Shown here in pieces: positions 22,730 to 54,189 of a stretch of 64,000 nucleotides of DNA (position 1 is its first letter; each line of letters starts with the position of its first letter). Position numbers and translations under genes: made by a program. A model generated the notes under the pieces. It searched no databases and was not told the origin of the DNA. It worked only from the letters and a program-made list of their open reading frames with translations. Source of the stretch: Auanema rhodensis (Eukaryota > Animalia > Nematoda); assembly GCA_964057225.1 (NCBI GenBank), contig OZ059895.1:12214001-12278000 (forward strand), written 5' to 3'.

Positions 22730-22742
22730 TGGAGGTTCCACC
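22730..22742 (+). promoter_or_regulatory. Primer binding site, tRNA-Gln-like
   Basis: TGGAGGTTCCACC directly after the LTR; complement of the metazoan tRNA-Gln 3' end (..GGTGGAACCT-CCA). Confidence 0.85.
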
Positions 22743-23710
22743 TCGAACTCATTTTTGTCGCAAAAACTCGCATAAAAAGTCCATATTTTGATATCTAAAT
22801 TAAAACTTCCTCCACGGTTAGCAACATAATGAGGGCGCCAACTTGTATAAGGTGCAGGTACAAGGGATCTCTCTTTTAGAGAGCTAGGACTATATAATTT
22901 TGAAATTTCACCCGCTGTCCCCACTCATAAAACCGTCTGAGTGTCCACCCTTATAATACCGTATCCTGCACCGCTTCTCTTGCATTTTTTTTTGAGGACG
23001 TTTGGATCGAAATAGGGGACAATTTCACCAAACGAAATTTTGATTACATTATTATTTGGCAACGAGGAGTTAGAATGAAATTTTGAAAGCGCACAAAGTT
23101 TAATATTTTATTGTGGTCAGGACTAGAGATTTGAAAGTTAAATTCAGGCGTAAAAGAGCATGCTAACTAAATATTTTTGCGGGAGCCGTTATTCGGTTTT
23201 TATTTTTTTTTTGATTGTGAGAATAGACCACACTAGTCCGAAAAATCCTGGCACAAATTTTGTTGCCTGTCAGGTCATTTTGGCGAAAGCACATGGGCTA
23301 CGGATGTTTTCTTCTCCGTAGAATGTGTCACCTTCCTCAGCTCATTTTTGTTGCTAACATCATAAGATATTCCCACACACCTACCGTAGTCTTCATATTG
23401 TAATATTCTATAAATTAGTAAAATGGTTTAAAGAAAAAAATTGCGTTTTATAAACGAGCTTTGGTCTCAGTCCATTAGTAAAATGAGCAATCTTTTTAAA
23501 TATTCTCGGAATCTCATTAGCATGCCAAAATCATTCCGGAAAAGAATCGCCCACGGCTTTTAATAATCAACGTGCACATGAGCCATTTTCCCAAGGCGCA
23601 CGCACTCCTTCTTTATTAATAAGCTCGACCAAAGTTTGTGTTATGAAAAAAAAAAGAGAGAGAGAGAACAAATGAGTGAAATTAAGTATTTATTATATAT
23701 AAAACAATTG

Positions 23711-24311
23711 TTAAAAGCCCCATTTAAAATGCAACTGTCTCACAAATTCTATAGGCTGTGAGATGGGCTCATTGCTAGGCTCTAAATACTGCGAATACTC
23801 TGAATCCGCAGAGGTCCTTAGCAATAAGCCCATAGGAGACTGTTCATAAAACAAATAAATTTTAAACAAAATTTTAGACATATAATCATAAAAATCATGA
23901 GGCTTATGCTCATACCAATTCCAAGGGGATGCGATTAAATTGGGGTTTTCATACCAATGCGCGCACAAATCGGTGAGGCACCATCGCCCAATAGCTGCAA
24001 CCTCATCCGCTATTTCTTGCATTAGGGAGAAATTCACTAATCCCCTCCCCAGATAATGCATTTTTAAATCCTCGATAAACTAAAATTTTTTTTTTATTAT
24101 TAATATAACATGTTTCTTTGCTTTAACCAACCATCTTAATCATGTCTGGGTGAGGCCTATAAGCTAACACTTCGTCTTGATCATACAAGACGAGGTCAGC
24201 GTACAGCTTTCTCAAGACAAAAGTCATTCCCGATAGACCTTCATAAGCCATTCTTTGATTATTTTTTTTTCTTTCTTCTTCAGCTCTACAAATATAAAGA
24301 ATCTTATGCAT
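23711..24311 (-). CDS. Putative spliced antisense accessory gene of element 1 (exons 24311-24132 and 24079-23711; ~182 aa, unknown function)
   Basis: Two minus-strand ORFs join in frame across a 52-nt AT-rich GTTGGT...TTTTAG intron (24131-24080). TTTTCAG acceptor 20 nt before the ATG; AATAAA just after the stop. Confidence 0.6.
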
Positions 24312-24671
24312 AAAAAGGGGACATAAAACGACTGAAAATCTCTCTCATATTTTCAAGAATTCAATTAGAGTAAAGTATTAAGATTGAGGCTGGAAAGAGC
24401 GAAGACCAACAAAATTTATAATTGATGAACATCTGTGAAAAAGAATAAAGAAAAGAGAATACGGTAGATAGGCGGAGCCAGATCTCAGGCCAAGATTTTA
24501 AAACTCTTTCTCATCTAATAACGATTCTCGGCGAAAGACGCCACGTCTCAATCTTCAAACTTTTCTTACTTTTCCCTATAACCGACCTGAATTTCTTGTC
24601 ACTCATTCAACGTCAACATCCCCCATATAACGAAACACTCGCGGTTTTTCCAAACCAAGAGTGATTCCAAA

Positions 24672-27600
24672 GTGGCACGAAGATACTCTTCGGCCGTCCC
24701 TGCTCTATACCCTTCTGAGTCCAGTGACGACATCGCAGTCGCCAGTCGAACCAGAAGCCGCACTCGACTCCTCAGTGTTCAGATTGAAGAGCCTGAACAA
24801 GAGGTAAAACCCAAAGTCGAGAAAACCTTCATTCCTCGAGAAGGCACGTATTCACCTCCGGACAACACCGAGGAGGACCCTGATTTCTATATTCAGGACT
24901 ACAATATTCAAACTTCAGCTTCAACTCCAAAGGTACACTCTTTTAAAAGTAATAAAAAGATTCAAAAAATTCAAAAACCAAAACAAATAACCTCTAATAC
25001 TTCACCAGCCACTCCCCACCTAAACTTATCAACTTTATCAGTTAATACTGATAACGATCTTGCATCTTCTTTTGAACTAACTCTAACACCGCAGGCATTT
25101 TCCACTCCGATAGAAAACTCACAACTTAATAAAACCTCATCTCTCACTATTCGCAAATCACCCTTATCAGTTATCACTGATAAGCTTGATTCGAAAAAGC
25201 TTGATTCTAAAAAAATTAATAAAAGAAAAACTAATACACCGCGTAGGCGCTCAACCTCTAATAATCCCGTAGAACCAAATCAGGAAATTACCGAAGTTTT
25301 GCCCTTATCACTAACTACTGATAAGTTCAAAAGTAAGAAATCTTTAACAGCTCGCTTAATAAAAGTTTTGAATTTGTCTCCAGGGGAGGTAACAACAGAA
25401 CAAGTTGATAACTCTCTTCACGTATCCTCCAACCCAACCCTTAATAAGTCAGATAGCGCTATACCCAGCTCAAGCGTATCAATACATTCGACGCCTCAGG
25501 CAACGAGTCGAATTATCAAACTCCCAGGGAAGCGGTTCTCCTCAGCCGCCCCTACCATTAGTTATCCAACATCTGGTAACTCGAAAAAGGGAGGTAAGAA
25601 TTTAACGGCGAGAAGCTCAGGCAGTAAAGGGATTACGTCATCTCGCACATACCCTGAGGATATACCAACCATGACGGAGACACCACGTCTTCCGGGAGCT
25701 GGTAAATCTACCATTGCGCACGCATTAAGCTCACCTTATTGCCCCATATACGACGGAAGTCGTAACTTTAGAGATTTCGTGGCAAAGTTTAATACCTTTT
25801 CTAACGCCTTAGGCTTAGTGATGCCCGAAAGACTAACTATTTTACCATTACTATTGAAAAATGATAGAGCAGAGGAAGCTTATTTAGAGCTACCTGACAA
25901 GGTCAGAACAGCTGGACCTTGGGTTACCCTAATAGAAGAGTTAACATCCAAGCTGTGTCCCGAATACAATCAAGACCCTGCCCTTATCACACTTCAAAAC
26001 AGCACTCAAGGCGATTTATCAATTGATGGTTTTGCACAAACGTTAAGAAACCTCAGCTTAAATGCTTTCTCTAATAGTGATACTCATAAAGATCACATTC
26101 TGAGGTCCACATTTTTGAGAGGCTTGAAAAATACGATACGCCCAGGGGTAATTCGAGCAAAACCCAAAACTTTTGCTGAGGCTGTTGATAGTGCTCGCTG
26201 GGAGGAATCAATTGCAAACCAAGTAGCAGACCCTCAGGCGCTATTGGTTAACGCAATTGAAAGAACTTTCCCCCCGCGCAGAAACAATGGTGGGAGAGGT
26301 ATGGCAAGAGGTTATCAATCTTTTAATAATAAAAATTATCAAAATTATAATAATTATAACAATTATCATCCAAACTTTCAAAACAATCAAAATTATCATA
26401 AATTTTCAAAAAATCAAAAAGGCTGGAATTTCCAAAACCCATTTGCTAGGAACCGCAATTTTGGTGACCGCGGTCGAAATTATCAGAATCAAAATCAAAA
26501 TGGGTATCAAAGAAGCCATAATGCATCACAAAATCAAGAAATGAGCAATAATAGACAGAGAAATAACAGTACCTTTAGGGGAAATAACAACAATAGAGGC
26601 AGAGGTAGAGGCTCAAGAGTCAATAATTTGACTCTGATATCTCCTTTGACTTTAGCCGTAGCTTTATCAGTAATCTTATCACTGGTTACAACAGCTGAAG
26701 CATACCAGCTATGTACTAAAGCTACTGGAGGAGCCCTTCTCCGTCCCCCATCTCTCCGAAAATGCTTATTACCACCAATAAAGCATATCTTACGAACAAA
26801 AGTTCATCTTTATACAAGGAATCAAACGGCACATGAATGGGATGCATGGAGATGCTCCAAAGAAATTCATAAAATGTGTATCAGAGACCTTTTGTTCCTT
26901 AGAGATACCAATACAACGATAGCGAGAATTGAAAAGATACCAGCTGCAGAATGCAGACTGGCAGTGAGAGATAGAAGATGGAATTGGAGTGAATTAAAGA
27001 AGATCGACAGCATAACATATGCAACTGACGAGCCTTCCTTCTCGCCAGGCCGATCTTTTAATAATGAACTATGTGAAGAGAAAGCCAGATTGGTTATCGA
27101 AAGAGGGGTTATGACACGGATGCCAGATGAAACTATAATCTCCAATTTAATACTAAATACTGAAGGATGCTTAGCGCATCATGGAGAATGTGCATCAGAT
27201 ACCTCAATCATCATATGGGAGAAACAGCCTTATGAATATCGATGCAACTATATCGACATGAGTGAATATAATGTGATAATTGGAGACGGCATTATTCTGT
27301 TACCAACCACTCAATCAGCCCTTGTAATCGATCAAAAAGAGATACCGAAGCAAATATCTTCTTGTTTTAAACAGCCAATCTTCCACACCACAACTGGCAA
27401 TTACATTCTCTTACCACAGTACCCAAATGACACCAATATCCATGTTTTAATAGAGAGAGAATATAAGAAACTTCCGGCGAAAAGAGATAAAAGAGCAATT
27501 GCGGAATGCACGGTTGAATTAAACAAGGAGTGGATACAAAAACAGGAAGATTTTGAAACTTTAATATTAAATATTTGTCCTTATCCTTTCTTACGACCGG

Positions 27601-28232
27601 TGATGAGTAATCCTGGTATTTATCAGATAATACCGCTTATAAAGGCCAGACGAGCTGTCAACCCTTCATATTCAATTATTGATTGGGTTTCAGCACATCC
27701 CGAGAAGTTTTATTTCTTCTTAAGAAGTCCCGTATCTGATAAATCCATACAACGTTTCCTTCAAACATACGAAATACACGACCCTGAGGAAGCAATACTT
27801 TATTTTCTTGCGCAAAAGGAACTGGCAGCAACCACTCGCGGCGCTATACGGTATTTAACCTCACAACAATTATTAGAACAGATAGGTGACAGATTAACAG
27901 CACACGAATTTGACGAAAAACTGCTAGAAAAAGACGGATCCTACCGTGAAAGAGCCGAAAGCATAGCGATGGAGTTAGCTTATACACCGGTAATATTTGA
28001 AAACAATCTGTCGGTACCATCAAGGCAAGAGGTTTTAAAATCCTTTGTGAACATGCCGCCGATCCGACCAACTCTAACAACTGACAATGCTGATGAGCGT
28101 ATAGTACTTAGAAATACTCTTTACTTATACTTATACTTACTGAGATACTGTATTACCAAAAATCACTTTTGCTATAAACAATATTCAGCACGCGACTACA
28201 GGGATTGCGCCATACATTGCATTATTTGGTAA
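24672..28232 (+). CDS. Gag + signal peptide + N-terminal half of envelope glycoprotein (truncated polyprotein of element 1)
   Basis: Gag capsid-like region (CPIYDGSRNFRDF...FLRGL) and N/R/G-rich tail. Hydrophobic signal LTLAVALSVILSLVTTAEA|YQLC, Cys-rich ectodomain, furin site KRDKR (27480-27494). Collinear with the element 2 ORF. Last ~35 codons are out-of-frame read-through. First in-frame ATG is at 25671. Confidence 0.9.
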   Translation: MARRYSSAVPALYPSESSDDIAVASRTRSRTRLLSVQIEEPEQEVKPKVEKTFIPREGTYSPPDNTEEDPDFYIQDYNIQTSASTPKVHSFKSNKKIQKIQKPKQITSNTSPATPHLNLSTLSVNTDNDLASSFELTLTPQAFSTPIENSQLNKTSSLTIRKSPLSVITDKLDSKKLDSKKINKRKTNTPRRRSTSNNPVEPNQEITEVLPLSLTTDKFKSKKSLTARLIKVLNLSPGEVTTEQVDNSLHVSSNPTLNKSDSAIPSSSVSIHSTPQATSRIIKLPGKRFSSAAPTISYPTSGNSKKGGKNLTARSSGSKGITSSRTYPEDIPTMTETPRLPGAGKSTIAHALSSPYCPIYDGSRNFRDFVAKFNTFSNALGLVMPERLTILPLLLKNDRAEEAYLELPDKVRTAGPWVTLIEELTSKLCPEYNQDPALITLQNSTQGDLSIDGFAQTLRNLSLNAFSNSDTHKDHILRSTFLRGLKNTIRPGVIRAKPKTFAEAVDSARWEESIANQVADPQALLVNAIERTFPPRRNNGGRGMARGYQSFNNKNYQNYNNYNNYHPNFQNNQNYHKFSKNQKGWNFQNPFARNRNFGDRGRNYQNQNQNGYQRSHNASQNQEMSNNRQRNNSTFRGNNNNRGRGRGSRVNNLTLISPLTLAVALSVILSLVTTAEAYQLCTKATGGALLRPPSLRKCLLPPIKHILRTKVHLYTRNQTAHEWDAWRCSKEIHKMCIRDLLFLRDTNTTIARIEKIPAAECRLAVRDRRWNWSELKKIDSITYATDEPSFSPGRSFNNELCEEKARLVIERGVMTRMPDETIISNLILNTEGCLAHHGECASDTSIIIWEKQPYEYRCNYIDMSEYNVIIGDGIILLPTTQSALVIDQKEIPKQISSCFKQPIFHTTTGNYILLPQYPNDTNIHVLIEREYKKLPAKRDKRAIAECTVELNKEWIQKQEDFETLILNICPYPFLRPVMSNPGIYQIIPLIKARRAVNPSYSIIDWVSAHPEKFYFFLRSPVSDKSIQRFLQTYEIHDPEEAILYFLAQKELAATTRGAIRYLTSQQLLEQIGDRLTAHEFDEKLLEKDGSYRERAESIAMELAYTPVIFENNLSVPSRQEVLKSFVNMPPIRPTLTTDNADERIVLRNTLYLYLYLLRYCITKNHFCYKQYSARDYRDCAIHCIIW

Positions 28233-28779
28233 AGAATGCAGAATGTCAATGGACGCTGAATTACCAGAAACGATCACCAAAATTCAAGAAATTTCTGAAG
28301 AATTACTCCAAAGAAGACCGGATATGGACAAGAGAGACAAAATAATAAAGAACCGCATAGCTAAAAATCAAGAAAATGCGAAAAAGAAGAAGGATAGAAC
28401 GCAAAGAGCACACCATAGAGACATTCAACCGGGCGACATGGTGATGACGACCATAAAATCACACCAAATCGGCCAAAAGCTTCGGAGAAGCTATGATGGA
28501 CCATACGAAGTCATCAACGTAGAAGGATCAAAAGTTCAAATCAGAAATTCATCAGGAAAACTACAAGATATCCACAAAGATAACTTGAAAATCTTCTCTC
28601 CTGCTTCACAAAACATCTCTTACAACACTCGCGCAAGACTTCGAGAAAGTCAAGCAGAAGAAGATAGCGACATTGAAATAATAAAAGTGATCAACAGGAA
28701 CAACAAGGATAGCATAGATACAGAGCCAGAAGATGAAAATGAAGACGAAATATGGCTTCCGAGGAATGAAGAAGAATAA
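28144..28779 (+). pseudogene. Integrase C-terminal remnant incl. GPY/F motif (element 1)
   Basis: The frame reads DTVLPKITFAINNIQHATTGIAPYIALFGKECRMSMD...GDMVM...YDGPYEV...IHKDNLK. It aligns with element 2 WDIHLPKVMFAINT...SPYVVLFGRDARLPID...FEGPYLV...VHKDFVK. Confidence 0.88.
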
Positions 28780-29466
28780 CAACAAGATAATGCTACGTTA
28801 TTTAATATATTGTAACAAAATAACGATGAATTAGAAAAAAAAAATTAATGCTAAATAACATTCAAAATAAAAATAGCATTTAATAGAGATTGAGAAAGGA
28901 AAAATAAGGCAAATTCTAAACGAGGAGATGTTATGACTAATGGTTCCAAGTTACCGTAATCCTATGCGGACTAGAGGACATTTTGACAACCATCCGAGCT
29001 CCATGTGCCTCTCCAAATAAGATGAGATAAACACTGGTAGGCGTATCAACCACAATTTCATCTTAAGTGGTAGTCTCCATTAGTAATCAAGGATTCACTC
29101 TGGGAGACATATGGAGACACATTATTAAATCATAATCTCGGTTCAATTTAGAAATGAGTACTTCTTGAGACCATTAGTCAAAATAATAACATATTCCCAT
29201 TCATTACTAGCCCCTTATTCTACAATCTCTATTAGGAAATGCTTGAATATTAAGATAATTAATTTATGAAATTAATAATATTCTAATTCATCGTCACTTC
29301 ATATTATATTGAACCCTTCTTTTAAATTATTGTAATTTTGTTTGTATACTAACTAAAACTCTATCATACTATAGTTATTGTGAAGCTAAAACAATTGAAC
29401 TCTAAAACTCAGTTACATATAAGCCCAAATTTTTGTTTAAAATATCGCGAGGTCACGACAATCTTT

Positions 29467-29477
29467 GAAAAAGGGCA
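29467..29477 (+). promoter_or_regulatory. Polypurine tract of element 1
   Basis: GAAAAAGGGCA abutting the 3' LTR. Confidence 0.65.
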
Positions 29478-29843
29478 CGTTCCATTCGGAGACTCTATAT
29501 ATGTAACTGCAGGGTTAGAGCCAGACCGACTAGAGGAATGAGGAATGGCACCGCCTTCCCTCATGCCCCTATTCGGGAGTTCGCCCCTTTGCAAGCCCAT
29601 GGACGGTTTGCATCTAACTTAGTTAATCTTATATATTAGTCTTTGTCTTGTAAATGTAGTTTACTTTATCCTTGTGTTATTGTATTGTAATGATATTGTA
29701 TTGTGTATAATAAACCTATATATTTCCTTATCTTATGTAATCCTTATGCTCTGTTTCCATACCGCTACACTTATGGAATACTATACGCGTAGTTGAGCAG
29801 ACTACAATGGTCTGTTCAATATACGTAGGAGCGTAATGGAACG
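29478..29843 (+). repeat. 3' LTR of element 1 (366 bp)
   Basis: Direct repeat of 22364-22729. Confidence 0.95.
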
Positions 29844-41000: not shown

Positions 41001-43940
41001 TTACAGTTATAAACCAGTAGTTTATGAACCTTAATCTTAACTTTACTGTTTCTATCTATTTCCTATTGAAACAAACGTTGTTTAAACACTATACAACTGT
41101 GAAACCTTTTTTAATTTATTGTATTTGGAGCTCATAAGATTTGATATCATCGAGGGATTTAGATGTAACGTGGAAAATAACATAACTAACATGAAATTGG
41201 AAAAAAAACAATAACGAGGATAAGTATGTAAATCATTGAATATCAGGTATTTTCGCTTACGACCATACCACGTTGAAAATACGCCATCCCGTCCGATCTG
41301 GCAAGTCAAGCAACGTTGGGCCCGGTTAGTACTTGGATCGGAGACGGCTTGGGAATCCCGGGTGCCGTAAGCTTTTCAAATTTTTTTGACGATCATGCCA
41401 CGTTGAAAGAACGCCATGCAGCTGATTTTCAATTTTATCTCTTCCGTAACAAATGTTTTTAATTTTCCAGCAGTTTTACTTAGATAGCTCAACCCAAGGC
41501 ATCAAAATATCTTCAATCTTATTTCTATATTACAGTTATAAACCAGTAGTTTATGAACCTTAATCTTAACTTTATTGTTTCTATCTATTTCCTATTGAAA
41601 CAACAATGTTTTAACACTATACAACTGTGAAACCTTTTTTAATTCATCGTATTTGGAGCTCATAAGATTCAATATCATCGAGGGATTTAGATGTAACGTG
41701 GAAAATTACATAACTAACATGAAATTGGAAAATAAGCAATAACGAGGATAAATATCTAAATCATTGAATAACAGATATTTTCGCTTACGACCATACCACG
41801 TTGAAAATACGCCATGCAGCTGATTTTCAATTTTATCTCTTCCGTAACAAATGTTTTTAATTTTCCAGCAGTTTTACTTAGATAGCTCAACCCTAGGCAT
41901 TAAAATATCTTCAATCTTATTTCTATATTACAGTTATAAACCAGTAGTTTATGAACCTTCATCTTAACTTTACTGTTTCTATCTATTTCCTATTGAAACA
42001 AACATTATTTTAACACTATACAACTGTGAAACCTTTTTTAATTTATTGTATTTGGATCTCATAAGATTTGACATCATCGAGGGATTTAGATATTACGTAG
42101 AAAATTACATAACTAACATGAAATTGGAAAAAAAACAATAACGAGGATAAGTATGTAAATCATTGAATATCAGGTATTTTCGCTTACGACCATACCACGT
42201 TGAAAGTACGCCATCCCGTCCGATCTGGCAAGTCAAGCAACGTTGGGCCCGGTTAGTACTTGGATCGGAGACGGCTTGGGAATCCCGGGTGCCGTAAGCT
42301 TTTCAAATTTTTTTGACGATCATGCCACGTTGAAAGAACGCCATGCAGCTGATTTTCAATTTTATCTCTTCCGTAACAAATGTTTTTAATTTTCCAGCAG
42401 TTTTACTTAGATAGCTCAACCCAAGGCATCAAAATATCTTCAATCTTATTTCTATATTACAGTTATAAACCAGTAGTTTATGAACCTTAATCTTAACTTT
42501 ATTGTTTCTATCTATTTTCTATTGAAACAACAATGTTTTAACACTATACAACTGTGAAACCTTTTTTAATTTATCGTATTTGGAGCTCATAAGATTCAAT
42601 ATCATCGAGGGATTTAGATGTAACGTGGAAAATTACATAACTAACATGAAATTGGAAAATAAGCAATAACGAGGATAAATATGTAAATCATTGAATAACA
42701 GATATTTTCGCTTACGACCATACCACGTTGAAAGTATGCCATGCAGCTGATTTTCAATTTTATCTCTTCCGTAACAAATGTTTTCAATTTTCCAGCAGTT
42801 TTACTTAGATAGCTCAACCCAAGGCATTAAAATATCTTCAATCTTATTTCTATATTACAGTTATAAACCAGTAGTTTATGAACCTTTATCTTAACTTTAC
42901 TGTTTCTATCTATTTCCTATTGAAACAAACATTGTTTAAACACTATACAACTGTGAAACCTTTTTTAATTTATTGTATTTGGATCTCATAAGATTTGATA
43001 TCATCGAGGGATTTAGATATTACGTAGAAAATTACATAACTAACATGAAATTGGAAAAAAAAACAATAACGATGATAAGTATGTAAATCATTGAATATCA
43101 GATATTTTCGCTTACGACCATACCACGTTGAAAGTACGCCATCCCGTCCGATCTGGCAAGTCAAGCAACGTTAGGCCCGGTTAGTACTTGGATCGGAGAA
43201 GGCTTGGGAATCCCGGGTGCCGTAAGCTTTTCAAATTTTTTTGACGATCATGCCACGTTGAAAGAACGCCATGCAGCTGATTTTCAATTTTATCTCTTCC
43301 GTAACAAATATTATTAATTTTCCAGCAGTTTTACTTAGATAGCTCAACCCAAAGCATCAAAATATCTTCAATCTTATTTCTATATTACAGTTTTAAAACC
43401 AGTAGTTTATGAACCTTAATCTTAACTTTACTGTTTCTATCTATTTCCTATTGAAACAAACAATGTTTTAACACTATACAACTGTGAAACCTTTTTTAAT
43501 TTATTGTATTTGGAGCTCATAAGATTCAATATCATCGAGGGATTTAGATGTAACGTGGAAAATTACATAACTAACATGAAATTGGAAAATAAGCAATAAC
43601 GAGGATAAATATGTAAATCATTGAATAACAGATATTTTCGCTTACGACCATACCACGTTGAAAATACGCCATGCAGCTGATTTTCAATTTTATTTCTTCC
43701 GTAACAAATGTTTTCAATTTTCCAGCAGTTTTACTTAGATAGCTCAACCCAAGGCATCAAAATATCTTCAATCTTATTTCTATATTACAGTTATAAACCA
43801 GTAGTTTATGAACCTTAATCTTAACTTTACTGTTTCTATCTATTTCCTATTGAAACAAACATTGTTTTAACACTATACAACTGTGAAACCTTTTTTAATT
43901 TATTGTATTTGGAGCTCATAAGATTTGATATCATCGAGGG
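35043..43940 (+). repeat. 5S rDNA array, segment 3
   Basis: Full 5S at 35301, 35829, 36358, 36887, 37416, 37945, 39271, 39800, 40727, 41255, 42182, 43110; truncated at 38473, 38872, 40328, 41783, 42710, 43640. Confidence 0.96.
35301..35419 (+). rRNA. 5S rRNA
   Basis: Full 119-nt copy. Confidence 0.95.
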
Positions 43941-44321
43941 TGTCACATCTGCAAGCACATGGTAAACATGTGCGCGCTATTCAAATAGCGGGAGCCTGAA
44001 CAAGCCCCGCCTACAACATGGGACACACATGGCACTCTTGCTTCTGGCCTAACCCAGATAGGTTGTCTTATAGTCATGTGAGTCTCATCTCTATATCATC
44101 TATATATATACTCTATTTAATACTTTATTAGATCTCTTCATATTCTTTCTTAATGTAATTCTTATATTGTATTTTCTTGTTATCTGATAATGAATCTTTT
44201 TCTCTTTAAGTATTTGTCTTAATAAGGAAATCGGGGCGTTCGGGTCTGCCTACCTAAGGAACAAGGTAGAAGTACATATATTTTCCGACCATGAAAAGAC
44301 GGGAAGAAACAATATGTAACG
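43941..44321 (+). repeat. 5' LTR of element 2 (381 bp)
   Basis: TGTCACAT...ATGTAACG; no differences seen vs 53707-54087. Confidence 0.95.
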
Positions 44322-44334
44322 TGGAGGTTCCACC
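44322..44334 (+). promoter_or_regulatory. Primer binding site, tRNA-Gln-like
   Basis: TGGAGGTTCCACC, identical to the element 1 PBS. Confidence 0.85.
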
Positions 44335-45485
44335 TTGCTTACTTTACTGTTAATTTATTGACAGCAAGTTTACGAGACTTTTGGACTTAATTACCCAACA
44401 GTGAGGAGTAACCGAGCCGTGCACCATGATTTCCCCAAAAAATTATTTTGGCTACCACTTCTCCTCCGCTCAACGAAAACTGGGAGGTGTCTGAGACGTT
44501 TGGGGAAACTATCAGACAATAGTTTTGACGAGCGTTACCTTTTTGTTATGCACGCGCGTGCTATTTTGATTCATTACTTTATGATGTGAATGTCCAGTGT
44601 GGCAACAGAGCTCACTTTTTAGCTGAGTTGTTTGGAAGCTGGAGGCTGTTGGGATAATTTTATTTATGATTTTTTGATTTTGATTCACATCCAAGGGTTC
44701 ATCAGGGTTCTACTCCTGTTAACTCTTTTCTTATTAGTTGTTATTAGTTCAGAGATAATAAGAATATTTGAATTCCTACCCACCCAAGTCCACTCTACGT
44801 CTGCCAACGTTTCCTTTTTCCTATCTTATTGACAGATTACTGAATTTAAATTCCTATATCAATCTTAAATTACCTTCTAAATCTTTTGAAATTAAATTAA
44901 AAATTATCTTAATTAAGATTTATTTTGAAATTCTTCCTACAAATCTTAACAAACTTCATAAAATTGAACTTAATATACGAGATGAGACATTTTTGTTTAC
45001 TTTAAGCTTACTCACATTCAAATAGTTGGCCCACGCGTACCAGCTGTTCGACATGTGTAGTCAATAACAGCTGTTAAAATTCAAAAGTTTTCAAACAGGC
45101 TTAAGGCACCATCTGTGATTCCTTATTTGTCTCTAAGCTGACATAAGTGATTATAATATTCAAATATCACGACAGACGGTCAATGGTTGTTTACCATAAG
45201 CGCTAACATCTGGTGTCGTGACACATGGCTGGAGGCGGAGCTTGAAGCTTCAACGATCCTCCTTCATCAGACGCCATTGTCACAAACGTTTTTACTGGAG
45301 TCTAGTTGCTTCCAGTACGCGCTCTTATATTCATCTAACTGTATTCACCAGCCACCCTGTCGGACTCGGACATCAGCGAGGAAAACAAAGATCAGGAACA
45401 AGGATCACCAGAGGTACGCCAAGTTTTTGAATTTAATTCTAAAAACTTAAATACTCCATCCACCTACCTCTCTCCTTTTGAATTT

Positions 45486-48400
45486 TTGAGAGAAGAAGGT
45501 GATTCCTCTTCTTCTTCTCACTCTTCTTCTCTAACAATTAGAACGAGAAGTAAAAGCAGAAAGGCCATCACTGAGGAAACACCTCGGGCACCTACTACAG
45601 TACGAAATAGATCACCAAGTCGGTGGGCCGCTGCTATAACTAAAGCTTTTGAAAGAAAAATGACTCCTACCTCTCCATCTCCTAATTCTAATGTTGCTCC
45701 ACCCTCTAGAAATATGGCAACTATTTTGAATTGCCATCTCTGTCCCAGGTATGACGGCTCTCGTAGCTTTCGTTCTTTTGTTGAATCTTTAAATAGATTT
45801 TTTAATGTTATGAATCTAAGCTTACCTGAGAGACTATTAATTTTGCCTCTTCTTTTGGAATCAAATGAAACAGCTCTCTCCTTGTATAATAGTATTCCTA
45901 GTGGCATAAGAACTAATGGCCCATGGATTGTTTTGATGGATCAGCTCACTGAGCTTTTAGCGCCTAAAACAGATAAAAATTTCACCATAGCGCTTATTCA
46001 TCGAGTACAACAAGGAGATAAATCTGTTCTTGATTTTAGTATGGAATTAGAGAGAATGGCAAGCACCATAATGTCACCAATGGATCCCGAGCGGGAACCA
46101 ATGTTGAAAACGGCATTTTTAAATGGTTTAAAAGAGGAACTGGGTATTGCGGTTTTAACTAAAAACCCCGCCACTTATGAACAAGCTAAGAAATTAGCTA
46201 GGTTTGAAGAAGGCGTTCGAAATAGCTTCATGAAAAGAAATGAAGACACCAGCACCTTGAAGGAGCTCATAAATGCTTTACAGCATAAATTAAGCTTTAG
46301 TGAAGAAAGAGAAAGAAGTAGGAATAATAATAATAATAAAAATTATAAAAATAATAAAAATAATAAAAAAAATAATAACTGGACTCAGCACAATAATGGC
46401 TCTAATGATTATGAGCGAGAGAGAGAGCGACCTTCTGCCGTACGTTATAATAATAATAACTCGCAGAACGGGAATATGAATAGGCGTCCTAACCCGGGAA
46501 ACCGCCCATTTGCCAATGGCAGAAATGCCAATAGCTCGTCTTGGAACCCTAGGCCTAGTTCCCCAAGAAGACAAAAACCATCAGCCAATGGGAATGGTAA
46601 CTCAAGGGTATACAGCGTAGCGACCCCATTCATGCCACCGGTCACGTTGTGCCTGACTTTATTGGCACTCTCATGCCTTCCCTTTGGGTTGGCAAAATAT
46701 CAGATTTGCGCTCAATCTGAAGGGGGTATATTAGTAACACCTCCTGTGGTCACAGGCTGCCATAAGGCAGAAATTGAAAAGGCTCACAGTGTTGAGGTAG
46801 AAATATATCTACCAAAGGCTGAGATAGAGTCATGGGAAGCATGGAAATGCTATGTGAAAAAGTATAAAAGCTGTGTGAGAGATTTCATGTTTTTGAGAGA
46901 TCGTAACACCACATTCTCTCATATTGAAACAGTAGATAAGAAAGATTGTGTTCGAGCACATAGAAATCGTATGTGGAATGATAAAATCATGAATGCCCAA
47001 CAGCATTCAGTTTTTGAAACACCATTAAACGAGCATAATCCAACTCGCTCTTGGTCCACTGAAGAATGTGTAGAAATTGAACAATTTGTATTGAAGCGAG
47101 GGATAATAACTAGATTGAAAGAAGATCACATTGTATCAGACTTATTTATAAATACTGATAATTGTAAAGGAAATGAAGGGTTTTGTGCAACTGGTGAAGG
47201 TGCAGTTATCTGGCAACCACCTATCCTATCAGTTGTCTGTCACTATCAAAAACTTGGCCCCTTCTCCGCCATGTTGGGTGATCATATTCTTCTAGTTCAC
47301 TCTATTGAAAGCGCTTTTGTTCTCCAAAATCATTTCACATCCGCTCACGTTCAATCTTGTTTCGAATTCGCTGTTTTTGAATCATCTTCTGAGGCAATTA
47401 TCCGATTCACAGCATATCCCCGTGTTTATAATTTGCTTGATCTTTCCAATACTTTGCTTAATGCTGATAGACGCAGAAATAAACGTAATGCATTACCTCA
47501 AAAACATCGCTCTTTCAGTGATGATTATCTTTTTGTTAATGCGAAATCCCAACCATATGCGTTTCCATTTCTAAGACCTACTTTCATTTTTGGATCTGCA
47601 TCTATCACTAAGTTTTACGCAAAATATATGAGATATGCAGCTACATCATCTTATGAGAGTTTGCTCCAATTCGCGATAGATAATCCACTGTTCATTGACA
47701 CAATTGTTAGTTTAGGATTGACAAAAGATCATATAACTAACTGGGCAAAGTCTAATAATTTCAAAGATCCCAATCTTTTGATTTTACAATGTATGGGTAT
47801 AGAGGAAATTAAACTGGCTACTAGACAGATGATTAATAGCATGAAATTGGATGATCTTATCACTCAAGTAGCTCGTCGTATAGAAGTTCCTCGGTTAAAA
47901 AGATCTTTGATGAAATCTACAACATCCATAGAAGATTTCTTTCGAGGAATGGCTCACGCAGTAGTATATCAAGCCACAATTCTTGATGGTACACAAACAG
48001 TTCCATCAATTGAACAGTTGGCAAGAGCCTTATATCCATCTATATTACCACGCAGTGGAAATATGAATCAATCTGAAATTATTGCAACTGCTCAAGGCAT
48101 GTTATTCATGATCCAACAACAATCGGGAAAAGAACAAATATCTCGTGACATGCAAGTCAGTCGACAACAAAAAGCTGATGCTACTGTTAGAAATAACCAA
48201 GAGCAAGATTTAGCAATTATATCCAAGCTGCCTGACTATCACAACCTTTATACAAAGAATAGTACAGCATATTATGGATTTCCTCCACAGTCCATCGAAT
48301 ACCCACAGGAAAATCCTAAATTCAATAAAACAGAAGTTTTAGAATTCATAAGTTGGGTTAAAACTCAAATCACAACTGATAAAAATATGGTACAGCATAC

Positions 48401-51400
48401 TACTGTAACCCCAATAACTGCCACCAAAACTACAATTCGTAGTTTAACAACTCCTACCCCTAATGCGTACGAGAGAGGTCGAGAGTTGTATGTAGCAGAA
48501 GTATATGACAATGTTCTCCACAAATCAGAGCATAAAACTAAAACGATAATAGATAATAAGTTGAATTATGGGTTTGAGAAAGCGCGTCTCTCCATAATTG
48601 ACGAATTTCATCAACAGTTTCATACCATCTGTAAATCTCAAATGGAAACTGTAAAAAGCTGGCAAGCTATATTACGTATACATCCTACAATAGGAGTAAG
48701 AGCTATGCTTCAGCGGGATGATATCGTTGCCCGATTTGTTGGAAGAAATGTTTTAAAAATAACAACTTGTCAGGAAATAGAACCACATTTTATTTATCGT
48801 AATCATTCTTACAATGATAAATGTTATGCAGAGACCCCTGTTTTAACACACGATAAACAATTATTCTTTGCTCCTATCGATAGCTACGATTTGAGCACTG
48901 AAGGACATGAGATCAATTGTGAACACAAAGAGACAGAAATTTGGTATGAAAATGGAACATGGAGAGATTATAAAGGTGACACACATAAAGTAGATAGTAT
49001 TCATTCAGAAAAACATGATCATTATGCTGAATTGAGTAAACTTCGATTCACAGGGCGGAATTTGTTTGAAAATTCGACTGAAAAATCCTTAGCCCTATCT
49101 ATTGGATTAACTTATGGTTATAGTTTATCTACTTCACCTCACCATGATCTTCTCCGCGTAATTTCTCGTTCACGTGATTGGCCTCAAATTTCCTCTTTCA
49201 TCTTCAAAGGAAGTAAACTTATAAGAGATGCCAGGAAAATTGTTTTCTCCAATTGGGATCTCTTCATTGACTTTTGTATAGGTTCAATTGAACGAACACT
49301 CATTACCATCGGTTGTATAACTCTGATATTATGTCTAATGATAGCATTATATTTCACTATAAAATGTTATCTCTCCCCTACTTCTATGTTAAAAATAAAC
49401 CATATCATGTTGAGCCCAACAGCTCCACCACTTGAGGGAGATGAGATTCATGAAACAGTTAGTGATGAATTGATGCGGAGCTATTTTCCCACCATCATAA
49501 CTTACATTCCTTTAGCCATACCTTTTGTATGTCACACAGCAACGAAGAAAGATGGACACATGTTACCGTTTGTTCATATTGACATTGAAGGTAGAGGACT
49601 GTTAGCATTATGGGATTCTGGAGCTACTGTCTCATATATTCCGTTCTCCACATTGGCATATATTGGAAGACAATATTTTACAAAATATTCTAAATCTGCA
49701 TCCACTGCAAATGGATCAGAGTTTCGCTTTGTAGGAAAATGCAGGTTAGATGTGGGTATAGCAGGTTACCAAGTGGAACACGAATTTTTAATATCTGAAG
49801 ACAATGACTGTCCAGGACAAATGTTACTTGGTACTGATTTTATGCGTACGTTGGAAGAAAGAAAGATATTTACTACATTAAAACTATGTAAAGGAAAGTT
49901 GATTGTTGGTAATATGGAAACACCCTTAGTAAAACCTGGTTGTTTTGCATATAAAACCACGACTAAAACAGTAAATATCATAAGTTTGTCCACAGTAACA
50001 GTTCCACCACACAGTACCTCCCATATATCTTTGCAAACGGGACCAGAATTAGATTTTGATCAATATGCTCTTTTAAAATCTAGCACAGGTCCTATCTCAA
50101 TTCCAGATGCCGCCATAGGACCTTTTCCTATTACTATGGTAGTATCAAACAATTCTTCAAAGCCAATTAAAATTAATAAAAATGACCACATTGGTTCAGG
50201 ACTTATAGCATCTAAAGAAATTATGAACGATTATGTTCCACCTGAAGCTGATTGGGAAGATAAGTTACCAACTTTTCCTCAGCATCTTTTGGATGATTTG
50301 AACTTCAATTCTTGCACTCTGTCCCATAAAATGAAGAAAAATCTGATCACAATCATTAAGGAAAACCAAACGGCATTTTTCAACCATGATCATAATATTG
50401 GTCTCTTTTGCGGACCAGTTGAACATGCCATTCCTATAAGATCTGATATGGATTTTCCAAAAAGTAGATCTTACAGAGTACCATTGGGTAAGCAAGAAGA
50501 AGTAGAACGGCAAGTGAAAGAAATGTTGTCGCAAGGTATAATCGAAAATTCGACGGCTACTTTCACTAGTCCAGTTGTTCTTGTGAAAAAGAAAGATAAT
50601 TCTTTCCGGTTCGTTACTGACTTTAGAGCATTGAATAGTGTTACTAAGAAACAAACATACAGCATCCCACACATTCCTGATATCATAGACTTAGCGGCTG
50701 GAGCTCAGTTCTTTTCGAATTTTGATCTCATTTCTGGTTTCTTCCAAATACCGTTGAAACGCTCAGATAGATACCTAACTGCTTTTACCACTCCATCAGG
50801 TACCTATCAGTATTGCCGAATGCCTATGGGATTGTGTGGAGCGCCACACACTTTTCAATCCGCAGTACGATACTTGCAATCTCTTGTTAGATGCAAACTG
50901 TTTGTATATCTAGATGATTTGCTAATAATTTCGAACTCAGCTGAAGAACATTTAAGAGATATACAAGAAGTGCTGAAAAAGGTCACTGAACTAGGGTTAA
51001 AAATTAAGTTATCTAAATGTTGCTTTGCAGCCACTGAAGTAAAGTTTTTGGGTTTTATAATAGGTAGAAATGGTGTTAAACCAGATCCTGCTAAAATACA
51101 GGCTGTTTCCGAATTTCCAAATCCAAGCACAGTTACGGCTGTCAGATCCTTTCTAGGTATGACTAACTATTTTCGACGGTTTATTCAAAATTATGCCGGA
51201 ATAGCTGAGCCATTGTATAAGTTAACACATAAGGATACTCCTTTTGAGTGGAAATCGGAACATGCAGACGCATTTAAAACTTTAAAAACATTACTGTGTA
51301 CTGCCCCTGTACTGAAACCTCCTAAAGCAGACCAACCTTTTGTTATAGAAAGTGATGGCAGTATGATCGCTGTGGGAGCAGTTTTATTGCAATCAGCAGA

Positions 51401-53093
51401 GAAAAATTCTCCATTACACCCGATTGCGTTCGCTAGTAGAAAGTTGACTCCAGCGGAACGGAAATATCCTCCTATTGAAGTTGAAGCACTCGGTTTAGTC
51501 TTTGCTCTTCAACAATTCCGTACCTATGTATTAGGAGTACCTACCACAGTTATCACAGATCACCGACCATTAACCAGTTTAATGTCGCGTAAAGATCTCA
51601 TAGGTAGATTAGCCAAGTATCAACTAATGATACAAGATTTCAACATAAAGATTGAATATCGTCCTGGCAAATTAAACAGTGTCTGTGATGCTCTCTCCAG
51701 GTATATAGGAAACGAAGCAAATGACAGTCGTCCTACTAAACCAAAGGACAAAGTAAAACCTGTTGATGCTTTTATTGCTCATATTACAACTATTTCTTCT
51801 ATTGACCAACTAAATTGTGAAGAAATACGGAAAGTTCAAGCTGGAGTTCCCTGGATTCGCGAAGCACTTTCTCAAATTAATAATGATAACTGTCCGGCTA
51901 ATATATCAGACCGGTATGAAGAACGAGAAGGCATATTACATGCAAAACAAGCGAAAAATTATTTAAAACCATCTATTATTTTACCTCGAAACGACAAAAT
52001 AACTGATGTTGTCATCAAATTTTTTCTCGAAGATTCCAAAATTGGTGCACACCTAGGTATAAATAAAACTACTGATGCGATTCGACGACGATTCTTTTGG
52101 ACTAACATGGTTCCACAAATAACTGAATTTATTAATCGTTGTACAAAATGTGCAAGTAGGAAATCTAACTCACACCAATCGTATATTCAACCTATGGGAA
52201 GATTTGTTATACCCGAAAAGCCATTTGATCGTATTCATGTAGATATACTAGGTCCTTTACCTCGCACTAATGATGGACATCGATACATCTTGAGTATTCA
52301 AGACGCTTTTAGTAAATGGGGAACAACTTGCCCATTAATAACACAAACGGCTACTGAAATCACAAAAGCGTTTGTAATTAGATTTGTTTTCATATATGGA
52401 CCACCAATGAGTATGATAACCGATAATGGTAGTAGCTTTTTGTCATCTGAATTTCAAGCTATGTGTAAACAATTTGGAATTAAACACACTACTACGCTAC
52501 CATATCATAAAAATGCTAATGGACAAGTTGAGAGACTTCATAGAACTTTAGAAGAAGCTCTCTCTTCATTCGTGAATGAACAACAAACTAACTGGGATAT
52601 ACACCTACCCAAAGTTATGTTTGCGATCAATACGTTACCAAACTCATCAACATCTATTAGTCCATATGTTGTATTATTTGGTCGGGATGCAAGACTTCCT
52701 ATTGACCATCAATTGCCTGGAAATAATCTTCAAACTGAAGAACCAGCCAATCCTACAGAAGATTTTGTCAATAGATCGCTAATACAAAATGAAAGCACAT
52801 CTAATATAGTAAAAGATAGAATTGAAACATGCACAAAGAAGAATGAACAACGGTACAATACACGAAATAGAACACAAAATAAAGAAATTCAGGTTAATGA
52901 CTTAGTTATGATAAAAGTGAATTCTACTCGAAACAAACTAACACCTTCATTCGAAGGGCCTTATTTAGTTACAGCAGTTCAAAGATCTTTCGTCGTGGTT
53001 CAAACAGATAAAGGAAAAAGCAGAAGAGTACACAAGGACTTCGTCAAACCTTACCAACGGACAACATCTATTCCGGTTATCACAATTTCTTGA
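45486..53093 (+). CDS. Gag-Env-Pol polyprotein (Gag, signal peptide, class III-like glycoprotein, TM, aspartic protease, RT, RNase H, integrase)
   Basis: Signal peptide ~46632-46694; furin RRRNKR 47469-47486; TM ~49299-49373; protease WDSGA (DSG 49614-49622). RT has SPVVLVKKKD..DFRALN, DLISGFFQI and YLDD (50907-50918). RNase H has ESDGS..PIAFASRKL..TDHRPL. Integrase has HLG..CTKC, HVD, TDNG, NGQVER and GPY (52956-52964). The order PR-RT-RH-IN and the RT motifs are Ty3/Gypsy. First ATG is at 45660. Confidence 0.96.
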   Translation: MREEGDSSSSSHSSSLTIRTRSKSRKAITEETPRAPTTVRNRSPSRWAAAITKAFERKMTPTSPSPNSNVAPPSRNMATILNCHLCPRYDGSRSFRSFVESLNRFFNVMNLSLPERLLILPLLLESNETALSLYNSIPSGIRTNGPWIVLMDQLTELLAPKTDKNFTIALIHRVQQGDKSVLDFSMELERMASTIMSPMDPEREPMLKTAFLNGLKEELGIAVLTKNPATYEQAKKLARFEEGVRNSFMKRNEDTSTLKELINALQHKLSFSEERERSRNNNNNKNYKNNKNNKKNNNWTQHNNGSNDYERERERPSAVRYNNNNSQNGNMNRRPNPGNRPFANGRNANSSSWNPRPSSPRRQKPSANGNGNSRVYSVATPFMPPVTLCLTLLALSCLPFGLAKYQICAQSEGGILVTPPVVTGCHKAEIEKAHSVEVEIYLPKAEIESWEAWKCYVKKYKSCVRDFMFLRDRNTTFSHIETVDKKDCVRAHRNRMWNDKIMNAQQHSVFETPLNEHNPTRSWSTEECVEIEQFVLKRGIITRLKEDHIVSDLFINTDNCKGNEGFCATGEGAVIWQPPILSVVCHYQKLGPFSAMLGDHILLVHSIESAFVLQNHFTSAHVQSCFEFAVFESSSEAIIRFTAYPRVYNLLDLSNTLLNADRRRNKRNALPQKHRSFSDDYLFVNAKSQPYAFPFLRPTFIFGSASITKFYAKYMRYAATSSYESLLQFAIDNPLFIDTIVSLGLTKDHITNWAKSNNFKDPNLLILQCMGIEEIKLATRQMINSMKLDDLITQVARRIEVPRLKRSLMKSTTSIEDFFRGMAHAVVYQATILDGTQTVPSIEQLARALYPSILPRSGNMNQSEIIATAQGMLFMIQQQSGKEQISRDMQVSRQQKADATVRNNQEQDLAIISKLPDYHNLYTKNSTAYYGFPPQSIEYPQENPKFNKTEVLEFISWVKTQITTDKNMVQHTTVTPITATKTTIRSLTTPTPNAYERGRELYVAEVYDNVLHKSEHKTKTIIDNKLNYGFEKARLSIIDEFHQQFHTICKSQMETVKSWQAILRIHPTIGVRAMLQRDDIVARFVGRNVLKITTCQEIEPHFIYRNHSYNDKCYAETPVLTHDKQLFFAPIDSYDLSTEGHEINCEHKETEIWYENGTWRDYKGDTHKVDSIHSEKHDHYAELSKLRFTGRNLFENSTEKSLALSIGLTYGYSLSTSPHHDLLRVISRSRDWPQISSFIFKGSKLIRDARKIVFSNWDLFIDFCIGSIERTLITIGCITLILCLMIALYFTIKCYLSPTSMLKINHIMLSPTAPPLEGDEIHETVSDELMRSYFPTIITYIPLAIPFVCHTATKKDGHMLPFVHIDIEGRGLLALWDSGATVSYIPFSTLAYIGRQYFTKYSKSASTANGSEFRFVGKCRLDVGIAGYQVEHEFLISEDNDCPGQMLLGTDFMRTLEERKIFTTLKLCKGKLIVGNMETPLVKPGCFAYKTTTKTVNIISLSTVTVPPHSTSHISLQTGPELDFDQYALLKSSTGPISIPDAAIGPFPITMVVSNNSSKPIKINKNDHIGSGLIASKEIMNDYVPPEADWEDKLPTFPQHLLDDLNFNSCTLSHKMKKNLITIIKENQTAFFNHDHNIGLFCGPVEHAIPIRSDMDFPKSRSYRVPLGKQEEVERQVKEMLSQGIIENSTATFTSPVVLVKKKDNSFRFVTDFRALNSVTKKQTYSIPHIPDIIDLAAGAQFFSNFDLISGFFQIPLKRSDRYLTAFTTPSGTYQYCRMPMGLCGAPHTFQSAVRYLQSLVRCKLFVYLDDLLIISNSAEEHLRDIQEVLKKVTELGLKIKLSKCCFAATEVKFLGFIIGRNGVKPDPAKIQAVSEFPNPSTVTAVRSFLGMTNYFRRFIQNYAGIAEPLYKLTHKDTPFEWKSEHADAFKTLKTLLCTAPVLKPPKADQPFVIESDGSMIAVGAVLLQSAEKNSPLHPIAFASRKLTPAERKYPPIEVEALGLVFALQQFRTYVLGVPTTVITDHRPLTSLMSRKDLIGRLAKYQLMIQDFNIKIEYRPGKLNSVCDALSRYIGNEANDSRPTKPKDKVKPVDAFIAHITTISSIDQLNCEEIRKVQAGVPWIREALSQINNDNCPANISDRYEEREGILHAKQAKNYLKPSIILPRNDKITDVVIKFFLEDSKIGAHLGINKTTDAIRRRFFWTNMVPQITEFINRCTKCASRKSNSHQSYIQPMGRFVIPEKPFDRIHVDILGPLPRTNDGHRYILSIQDAFSKWGTTCPLITQTATEITKAFVIRFVFIYGPPMSMITDNGSSFLSSEFQAMCKQFGIKHTTTLPYHKNANGQVERLHRTLEEALSSFVNEQQTNWDIHLPKVMFAINTLPNSSTSISPYVVLFGRDARLPIDHQLPGNNLQTEEPANPTEDFVNRSLIQNESTSNIVKDRIETCTKKNEQRYNTRNRTQNKEIQVNDLVMIKVNSTRNKLTPSFEGPYLVTAVQRSFVVVQTDKGKSRRVHKDFVKPYQRTTSIPVITIS

Positions 53094-53694
53094 AGGTAGT
53101 TTTTTTTTTAACAAAATCAAATTGTTGAAATTTTTTTATTTTATTTTGTGCCATTTCTGATTGTACCACTTCTTTGTTGTTGATTGATTTTCTCTGAGAA
53201 GTCTGCTATTGTTTTACAAAAGTTTGTTTTATTACTCCAACTCTCATTGAGTAGATTTTTTTTTCAACATTCTCTTGTGAATTTTGCTATTTTTTATGCT
53301 TAATCATTACTTGTATTCACCTTATGGACATTAGTCATACGGGTTAAACGAGTTTTCATTTTTTTGTACAGAACGGGCTCGACCTATTCTCAGGGTAACT
53401 CCGTACCTGTACAACTCGAGAAAATGAACGACTATATCACAGTCGAATGGTTTAGAAGCAAAGCTCTCGTTTGCAAGCATTTCACTACTCAAGTGAATGG
53501 AATAGAATCTATTCGATACTACATTTTGAATTCAACAAACTTGAAGAGACAATAGCTAAACTTTCAAATCGTATTGTATACATTATTTTTTATCGACTAC
53601 ACCATGATTTTTTTTGTTATCTTTTTCCAACATCCAACTATCTTAAAAAGTGAATTAATTTATTTTGTTTTTGAACGAGGACGTTCAACTTTTT

Positions 53695-53706
53695 AAGGTG
53701 GGGGGA
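53695..53706 (+). promoter_or_regulatory. Polypurine tract of element 2
   Basis: AAGGTGGGGGGA abutting the 3' LTR. Confidence 0.85.
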
Positions 53707-54087
53707 TGTCACATCTGCAAGCACATGGTAAACATGTGCGCGCTATTCAAATAGCGGGAGCCTGAACAAGCCCCGCCTACAACATGGGACACACATGGCA
53801 CTCTTGCTTCTGGCCTAACCCAGATAGGTTGTCTTATAGTCATGTGAGTCTCATCTCTATATCATCTATATATATACTCTATTTAATACTTTATTAGATC
53901 TCTTCATATTCTTTCTTAATGTAATTCTTATATTGTATTTTCTTGTTATCTGATAATGAATCTTTTTCTCTTTAAGTATTTGTCTTAATAAGGAAATCGG
54001 GGCGTTCGGGTCTGCCTACCTAAGGAACAAGGTAGAAGTACATATATTTTCCGACCATGAAAAGACGGGAAGAAACAATATGTAACG
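53707..54087 (+). repeat. 3' LTR of element 2 (381 bp)
   Basis: Direct repeat of 43941-44321. Confidence 0.95.
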
Positions 54088-54189
54088 AGGGATTTAGATG
54101 TAACGTAGAAAATTACATAACTAACATGAAATTGGAAAAAAAACAATAACGAGGATAAGTATGTAAATCATTGAATATCAGATATTTTC

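Follow-up and report, generated by a model that had tools for sequence, protein, structure and literature searches.

The window analysed here, a 64,000-nt stretch of DNA from the nematode Auanema rhodensis, carries what is quite probably an intact Ty3/gypsy element of a kind already in print, the nematode GAG-ENV-POL elements: a single frame encodes Gag, a predicted gB-type fusogen and Pol, the insertion is likely recent, and an internal signal together with a single transmembrane (TM) helix likely threads the polyprotein through the ER. The coordinates of its features are collected in Table 1. The 5′ and 3′ LTRs showed 0 mismatches over 381 bp, and the flanks of the element enclose a single AGGG in 52 of the 56 empty array units matched. 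Both in this element and in a divergent relative within the window (element 1), the 3′ terminus of the LTR is CG, versus the usual CA. Recent activity, which the first-pass annotation had deduced from apparently identical LTRs and an intact ORF, is borne out by the faultless LTR match and the AGGG duplication; the element is likely intact and its insertion young. A Pol order of PR-RT-RNase H-IN, with the integrase 3′ of RNase H, is the Ty3/gypsy (Metaviridae) order, and LTRs, primer-binding site (PBS), polypurine tract (PPT) and a short target-site duplication (TSD) are likewise those of this group. The Pfam set is gypsy-type, with no Peptidase_A17. In the accessible part of supplement 1 of PMC13524379, the 12-mer of the PBS is given as the tRNA-Gln 3′ end in nematode GAG-ENV-POL elements. 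We also considered an env-bearing BEL/Pao element of the Cer7/Tas/Atlas type and rejected it, as there is no Peptidase_A17/DUF1759 Pol and env does not stand after the integrase.

Table 1. Features of the main element and position of element 1, in window coordinates (a slash marks the joint; residues are counted from the ATG at 45660)
Feature	Position	Strand	Remarks
Left TSD AGGG, 4 bp	43937..43940	.	
5′ LTR, 381 bp	43941..44321	+	ends TG...CG
PBS, directly after 5′ LTR	44322..44333	+	complement of tRNA-Gln 3′-end 12-mer
Upstream open stretch in polyprotein frame	45339..45659	+	107 codons before first ATG
GT donor of gag-env-skipping joint	45414..45415	+	CAGAG/GTAC
Single Gag-Env-Pol ORF, 2477 aa	45660..53093	+	from first ATG
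Gag capsid domain, aa 72-159	45873..46136	+	Pfam Retrotrans_gag E 0.004, below cut-off
Basic Arg/Asn/Lys-rich region, aa 215-320	46302..46619	+	50% R+N+K, CCHC knuckle absent
Internal signal-like segment, aa 327-345	46638..46694	+	predicted signal-peptidase cut before K346
Env N-terminal half, aa 346-585	46695..47414	+	beta-rich, predicted gB domains I-II, 10 conserved Cys
Furin-type site RRRNKR, aa 604-609	47469..47486	+	
~340-aa insert, furin site to central helix	47493..48509	+	predicted helical then low-complexity; no family match
Env C-terminal half, aa 951-1150	48510..49109	+	predicted central helix + crown, 4 conserved Cys
TM helix, aa 1214-1232	49299..49355	+	Kyte-Doolittle 2.63
AG acceptor of gag-env-skipping joint	49514..49515	+	TTCCTTTAG/C; 15 codons before Met1301, protease start
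Aspartic protease, aa 1306-1396	49575..49847	+	Pfam; DSG at 1319
Reverse transcriptase, aa 1642-1801	50583..51062	+	Pfam; YLDD at aa 1750
RNase H, aa 1864-1994	51249..51641	+	Pfam
Integrase zinc finger + core, aa 2125-2283	52032..52508	+	Pfam
PPT	53691..53706	+	
3′ LTR	53707..54087	+	identical to 5′ LTR
Right TSD	54088..54091	.	
Element 1, divergent relative	22364..29843	+	identical 366-bp LTRs, TSD CTAA, same PBS

The polyprotein frame is free of stops from 45339 to the stop codon at 53093 (2584 codons) and has its first ATG at 45660. The first-pass annotation had started at 45486, an in-frame TTG, and its residue numbers are 58 higher than ours. Its description of one stop-free ORF with about 900 aa between Gag and the protease held, and the Pfam order agrees with it. 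Along the ORF we found Gag, a hydrophobic signal-like segment, the envelope, a TM helix, PR, RT, RNase H and IN. Although 21 slippery heptamers were counted, they are not needed because the frame is open throughout. Among the changes listed for other copies, 9 of 17 ORF variants were synonymous versus 22% expected, with 0 stops. The homologues P0005, P0008 and P0002 exceed the Retrotrans_gag cut-off that the capsid domain itself did not reach. Cysteines are absent from aa 190-326 of the Gag part, and the basic region within this span is likely, from its composition, the putative RNA-binding part of Gag. We noticed neither a glycine-2 nor a separate matrix signal in Gag. The open stretch ahead of the first ATG, first acidic and then Ser/Arg-rich, has a chance of ∼0.002 of arising at random; the corresponding stretch in element 1 spans 360 open codons (chance 3e-9). 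These upstream codons possibly extend the protein at its N-terminus, from a start that is either non-ATG or spliced.

The middle region of the ORF is, by its predicted fold, a gB-like class III fusogen whose fusion activity is putative. Pfam family PF24664 (Monjiviricetes_fusion) matched the C-terminal part of Env with 33.7 bits against a cut-off of 27 (E 1.3e-8). PF00606 (herpes Glycoprotein_B) matched the C-terminal half below its cut-off (E 3e-5), and the full-length Pfam search placed Glycoprotein_B at aa 966-1057, also below cut-off (E 4e-4). An AlphaFold2 model of Env built from 77 sequences reached a mean pLDDT of 70.8, with high values at aa 346-600 and 945-1110 and low ones in the insert. 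Searched against the PDB with Foldseek, this model returned herpes gB in all of its top matches (E 4e-10), and VIA-align superposed it on prefusion HSV-2 gB with a Z of 15.0 (rmsd 6.1, 377 residues aligned). The Foldseek TM-scores were low (0.16-0.28 by query) because the model is long and one third of it is insert. Rhabdo-like, Nyavirus (rank 3) and chu-like glycoproteins were the top matches in BFVD. A sequence search of Env against the PDB gave no real match (best E 0.23). The model thus predicts a gB-like trimeric fusogen fold, and both the Pfam match and the structural comparison favour the envelope that had been proposed for this region. The furin site proposed with it is present; the furin site of gB also lies in the linker ahead of the central helix. 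Fourteen of the 16 ectodomain cysteines recur unchanged in 46-61 of the 76 rows aligned. The two conserved halves hold 10 and 5 cysteines and the 340-aa middle only 1, so the proposed Cys-rich ectodomain stands for the halves but not for the middle. Seven N-glycosylation sequons are indeed present in the ectodomain but are not diagnostic, as the 327-aa Gag part also has 7.

This layout is a lineage trait and not a one-off, as first proposed. A word-index search with the env region found no homologue at E 1e-5, whereas a full HMMER search found 246 matches at E 0.001, the best 150 of which were scored for layout. Env preceded pol in 48 of the 51 proteins among these 150 that carry env and a pol domain, and 15 of these were single proteins of at least 2000 aa with env, RT, RNase H and IN. 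Pfam confirmed the env-first order on 19 chosen proteins; two env-last matches, P0030 and P0073, are BEL/Pao. In an RT-RNase H tree of relatives and two metagenome loci, with no named reference elements, the sister of the main element was P0012 from Caenorhabditis japonica (58% identity, support 100/99), and the nearest relatives were nematode elements of the same layout. The partial loci L003 and L005, and L004, which has stops, were left out. Ten relatives were looked up, and all seven for which an organism was given are nematodes. A metagenome scan with the RT yielded five distant loci (32-38% identity), which did not help in judging whether the splice sites are conserved.

The ∼340-aa insert behind the furin site, predicted to be helical at low confidence, was matched in sequence only by element 1 and P0001 among the matches listed. 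One clade of the RT tree, with 10 rows and a support of 99/97, is marked by long linkers, which 8 of 8 have. The best match to the insert in an ESM Atlas search scored 0.83, which we take as a lead only; folded alone from three sequences, the insert reached a pLDDT of 50, too low for a fold search.

Two hydrophobic segments frame the envelope. Across the 2477 aa, no 19-residue window other than aa 327-345 (Kyte-Doolittle (KD) 1.92) and the TM helix exceeds 1.9, in agreement with the signal-like segment and TM helix noted originally. A signal-like peak (KD ≥ 1.5) lies ahead of env in 41 of 49 rows, including both proteins from the window, and 33 of 34 proteins, the one from the window again among them, have a TM helix (KD ≥ 1.9) between env and PR; both positions are conserved, as threading needs. 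The furin motif R-x-K/R-R occurs in the linker of 20 of the 34 env-pol proteins, the window's included, and is missing in 14. From the conserved positions of signal and TM, membrane threading of the polyprotein appears well supported, the topology being read from hydropathy and conservation. The motif [VI]N-x-[VIL], in its strict form, was found before the signal in 16 of 49 cases and after the TM in 6 of 34, versus a background of 6% per 27-mer. As a protease site it is suggestive before the signal and weak after the TM, and we do not claim it.

We propose that Gag would be made in the cytosol, after which aa 327-345 would start translocation and signal peptidase would release Env at K346, the cut signal remaining on the Gag C-terminus as a membrane tether. 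The Env ectodomain would be glycosylated and cut by furin at R609, and aa 1214-1232 would stop transfer, with Pol emerging as a cytosolic tail. The element's protease would then cut itself off and free Pol. Capsid, fusogen and enzymes would thereby be gathered at one membrane for budding.

How much of each product is made may depend on a splice-like joint. Contigs of all four runs, from three studies, connect 45413 directly to 49516; the 4102 nt left out have GT..AG ends and comprise the Gag ATG, the whole of gag and the whole of env including the TM. Random deletions had GT..AG ends in 0.4% of trials. Ranked by a crude consensus, the donor is within the top 15 of 428 GT and the acceptor, only a moderate consensus match, within the top 41 of 543 AG. 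In element 1, a comparable acidic stretch is followed by a GAG/GTA donor of the same phase. The joint is also present in DNA runs (in the run X1, depth 718 at the joint versus 328 in gag-env), so genomic copies without the gag-env span exist. The joint probably originated by splicing, with RNA copied back as the simplest origin; it may instead be an old deletion that amplified. Under our preferred scheme, part of the RNA would be spliced from 45413 to 49516 with LTR, PBS and PPT kept, and the spliced RNA would likely be packaged and copied back, giving the abundant gag-env-less copies in the DNA contigs. With part of the RNA spliced, the output would probably have no fixed 1:1:1 ratio. Of the 1:1:1 output without frameshifting that the first-pass annotation had envisaged, the continuous ORF stands, but the joint weakens the fixed ratio. 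Transcripts that always lose the middle region had been named there as an observation that would speak against the proposal. The joint, which recurs in every run, goes part of the way towards this, but the middle is not always removed: DNA runs also have contigs that cross the Gag-Env and Env-Pol junctions.

That the joint is a working Pol mRNA is rather doubtful. One reading goes further and has Pol made mainly from the spliced RNA, in the manner of foamy viruses, from Met1301 or an upstream leader frame, with Env-Pol continuity as a minor route. The acceptor indeed precedes an in-frame ATG (49560, Met1301) at the protease N-terminus that opens 1177 codons, and a leader frame open across 45200-45412 would join pol in phase; foamy viruses employ a spliced pol mRNA (PMC7828637, accessible part). 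However, ATGs at 49529 and 49552, both out of frame, come before 49560, which has a C at −3; its position is not conserved, no Met position before the catalytic Asp being common to more than 4 of 31 proteins, and the leader frame has no ATG. Depth is similarly divided. In X1, pol was covered at 425-476 against 328 for gag-env, an excess of ∼100-150 that calls for copies with the first joint and a retained pol, but X5 had no clear pol excess (191-221 versus 127-239). Furthermore, in both runs labelled "RNA?", a label for guessed RNA status, the contig that carries the joint is missing most of pol as well. A second joint on the same contigs (49541 to 52833) has 2-nt microhomology and, with no GT..AG ends, was rejected as a splice. 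Carrying this second, non-splice deletion, the contigs represent a shortened derivative rather than a Pol mRNA. We regard spliced RNA as an unlikely main source of Pol. Coverage of gag-env was low in the two "RNA?" runs, an observation that we did not take as evidence by itself.

At the other extreme, unspliced RNA could supply all three products 1:1:1, with chance deletions accounting for the gag-env-less copies. The ORF is continuous here and in the long single-protein relatives; plain deletions do occur in this element family, as the second joint tells from its missing GT..AG ends, and element 1 is itself a deletion copy. Set against this are the rarity of GT..AG ends by chance, the good donor and its counterpart in element 1, whose protein is 27% identical, and we consider a strict single-mRNA model improbable. 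A broader proposal is that GAG-ENV-POL elements evade the apparent 1:1:1 ratio by splicing out gag and env as a 4.1-kb intron, which would give a Gag-independent, foamy-like Pol mRNA; the same RNA would be packaged and seed short non-autonomous copies, and the long-insert subclade may also target the spacer upstream of 5S rRNA genes. We put this forward tentatively, as a speculation more likely wrong than right.

Returning to Env, the protein could be a structurally intact passenger, the element replicating inside the germ cell with no cell entry, or Env doing no more than scaffold the membrane during assembly. The 340-aa insert might stand in the way of refolding, and in X1 the gag-env-less copies outnumber full ones, as the depth at the joint indicates. 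Such deleted copies, however, could be moved in trans, and the cysteines, signal, TM and furin site are kept across proteins of 20-30% identity, which argues for long selection on a secreted, folded fusogen and makes a passenger Env very unlikely. An assembly artefact, for which the difficult tandem array around the element might speak, or a one-off insertion of a viral glycoprotein into a gag-pol element is already refuted and practically without probability, because a 4217-nt contig of X1, an independent assembly run possibly from the same source sample, runs through gag-env (45327-49543) with 12 letter differences and, a masked repeat aside, without gaps, while relatives share the env-first order among the matches listed and the class is published.

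Element 1 retains the succession Gag-signal-Env-furin-insert, with 27% identity to the main element over 835 aa, but has no equivalent of aa ∼809-2312, that is, the second half of env, the TM and nearly all of pol. It had been called as evidence for a lineage trait; the Gag-signal-Env junction is indeed common to both elements, but element 1 cannot show the Env-Pol half because that part is lost. The window is a 5S rDNA array, and both elements lie in the orientation of a 5S gene, element 1 70 bp and the main element 102 bp upstream of it. Thus 2 of 2 insertions are 5S-proximal (−70 and −102), and two sites do not show 5S targeting. Our literature search found nothing on 5S targeting by GAG-ENV-POL elements or on splicing in them, although the full text of Sacco et al. 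2022 or bioRxiv supplements could contain such data. The accessible part of PMC5911963 (table 1) gives retrotransposons that target Pol III genes for fungi and amoebae only. If 5S targeting holds, Pol III-gene targeting would be extended to an animal env-bearing element.

Several known systems resemble this element. The NERVs of Sacco et al. 2022, non-canonical endogenous retroviruses of nematodes, reportedly have a continuous gag-env-pro-pol ORF with an env akin to Nyamiviridae; a Nyavirus glycoprotein is among our BFVD matches. Herpesvirus gB and Monjiviricetes glycoproteins (Nyamiviridae, chu-like) have the fold of domains I-IV in common with Env (Z 15), but at ∼10-12% identity, and Env differs by its 340-aa extra linker and by being embedded in a retroelement polyprotein. 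Closest are the nematode GAG-ENV-POL elements. According to the accessible parts of Chary & Hayashi (eLife 2026, PMC13524379), elements of Nematoda, Bryozoa and Platyhelminthes have only HSV/gB-type ENV, arranged GAG-ENV-POL, and the "ancient errantiviruses" have an ectodomain set between a signal and a TM, or between two TMs; Sacco et al. 2022 is cited there for nematode ERVs with ENV and POL flipped. As here, the nematode elements described in these parts combine a Ty3/gypsy Pol with a gB-type Env between Gag and Pol, and, compared by eye, they have the same Cys and Trp spacing in domains I-II. The main element likewise has env between gag and pol and an HSV/gB-type ectodomain between signal and TM. 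In the accessible part of supplement 1, a tRNA-Gln PBS is found in 8 nematode rows among 30 of 36, two with the same 12-mer; as the group also has several other PBS types, PBS type is no strict criterion. The novelty that the first-pass annotation had implied for the gag-env-pol layout is therefore lost: the layout is in print in that study, and our main claim adds one further intact member to the published nematode class.

The accessible main text of PMC13524379 holds nothing on splicing, linker inserts, stoichiometry, rDNA or non-autonomous copies, and the accessible part of its preprint does not mention splicing. Our literature search did not return the gag-env-skipping joint, the 5S setting or the ∼340-aa insert, a candidate marker of one RT subclade, and we offer these as testable leads.

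Env-bearing BEL/Pao elements have a related gB-type Env (P0030 and P0073 matched) but a Peptidase_A17 Pol and a C-terminal env. C. elegans Cer1 is, in the accessible part of PMC10309623, a nematode Ty3/gypsy element with gag-pol uninterrupted by a stop and a spliced RNA beside the genomic RNA, so a stop-free Gag-Pol is not special among nematode elements; Cer1 differs in having no fusogen and in that its spliced RNA encodes the export factor CERV. The locus described here gives exact coordinates at which to ask how such a polyprotein is expressed, from the conserved signal and TM to the splice-like joint. Foamy viruses, in the parts of PMC7828637 accessible, have a spliced pol RNA and keep their long Env leader as a membrane-anchored piece, but they are Retroviridae with env 3′ of pol in its own frame, and the likeness is one of analogy only. 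Should the joint turn out to be a working Pol mRNA, this would be a convergence with foamy viruses inside Ty3/gypsy.

The two halves of Env are joined by a linker that, among the relatives' matches listed (the best 150 of 246 from the HMMER search), varies from about 6 to 500 aa. All eight linkers of 150 aa or more fell within one clade of 10 rows in the RT-RNase H tree (support 99/97), and none of 500 shuffles gave a value as low for the clustering of long linkers. Many relatives also carry, by eye, a recurring (T/S/D/E)-Y-(I/L/V)-P-like motif 25-45 residues N-terminal of the catalytic Asp of the protease, which may be a protease cut site; in the main element, the intact GAG-ENV-POL copy, the motif overlaps the candidate splice acceptor. 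Two protease matches each were present in the relatives' proteins P0009, P0023 and P0034, and an RRM domain lies between Gag and Env in P0036.

Contigs from the sequencing runs X12 and X13 contained a short derivative of the main element bearing both the splice-like joint that skips gag and env (45413>49516) and the non-GT..AG joint that removes most of pol (49541>52833), with a length by subtraction of about 2.7 kb. Judged by depth, this two-joint derivative seems to be commoner than the full element in run X1, where a further joint, 44321>52940, leaves out even the PBS.

In element 1, the divergent relative, half of env is missing, as is the greater part of pol. Its LTRs are nevertheless identical and its TSD is clean; it likely moved in trans or lost these parts directly after insertion. 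Both LTR ends carry CG, with a perfect 8-bp inverted repeat. Upstream of its first ATG, 360 Ser/Thr/Pro/Lys-rich codons are open, a run with a chance probability of 3e-9, so that the polyprotein probably starts further upstream, either at a codon other than ATG or through an exon added by splicing.

Features and their window positions
Feature	Position	Details
5S rDNA tandem array	1-64000	background of whole window
Element 1	22364-29843
Open run before first ATG of element 1	24591-25670	360 codons
Mariner transposon	33760-35042	30-bp inverted ends, TA target
Mariner transposase	33943-34965	intact, 340 aa
Main element	43941-54087
Env linker, main element	47493-48509
Motif region, main element	49485-49515

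The array that forms the background of these insertions comprises 64 near-full 5S genes, all on the + strand, in units mostly of 529 bp; shorter 399-bp units bear a truncated 5S gene. The Mariner transposon sits 258 bp 5′ of a 5S gene. Element 1 and the main element, whose proteins share 27% identity, both occupy the spacer immediately 5′ of a 5S gene, at −70 and −102, in the orientation of that gene. The chance of such a placement is a few percent, a post hoc figure for two elements in the window, and targeting of Pol III genes by the two elements is possible.
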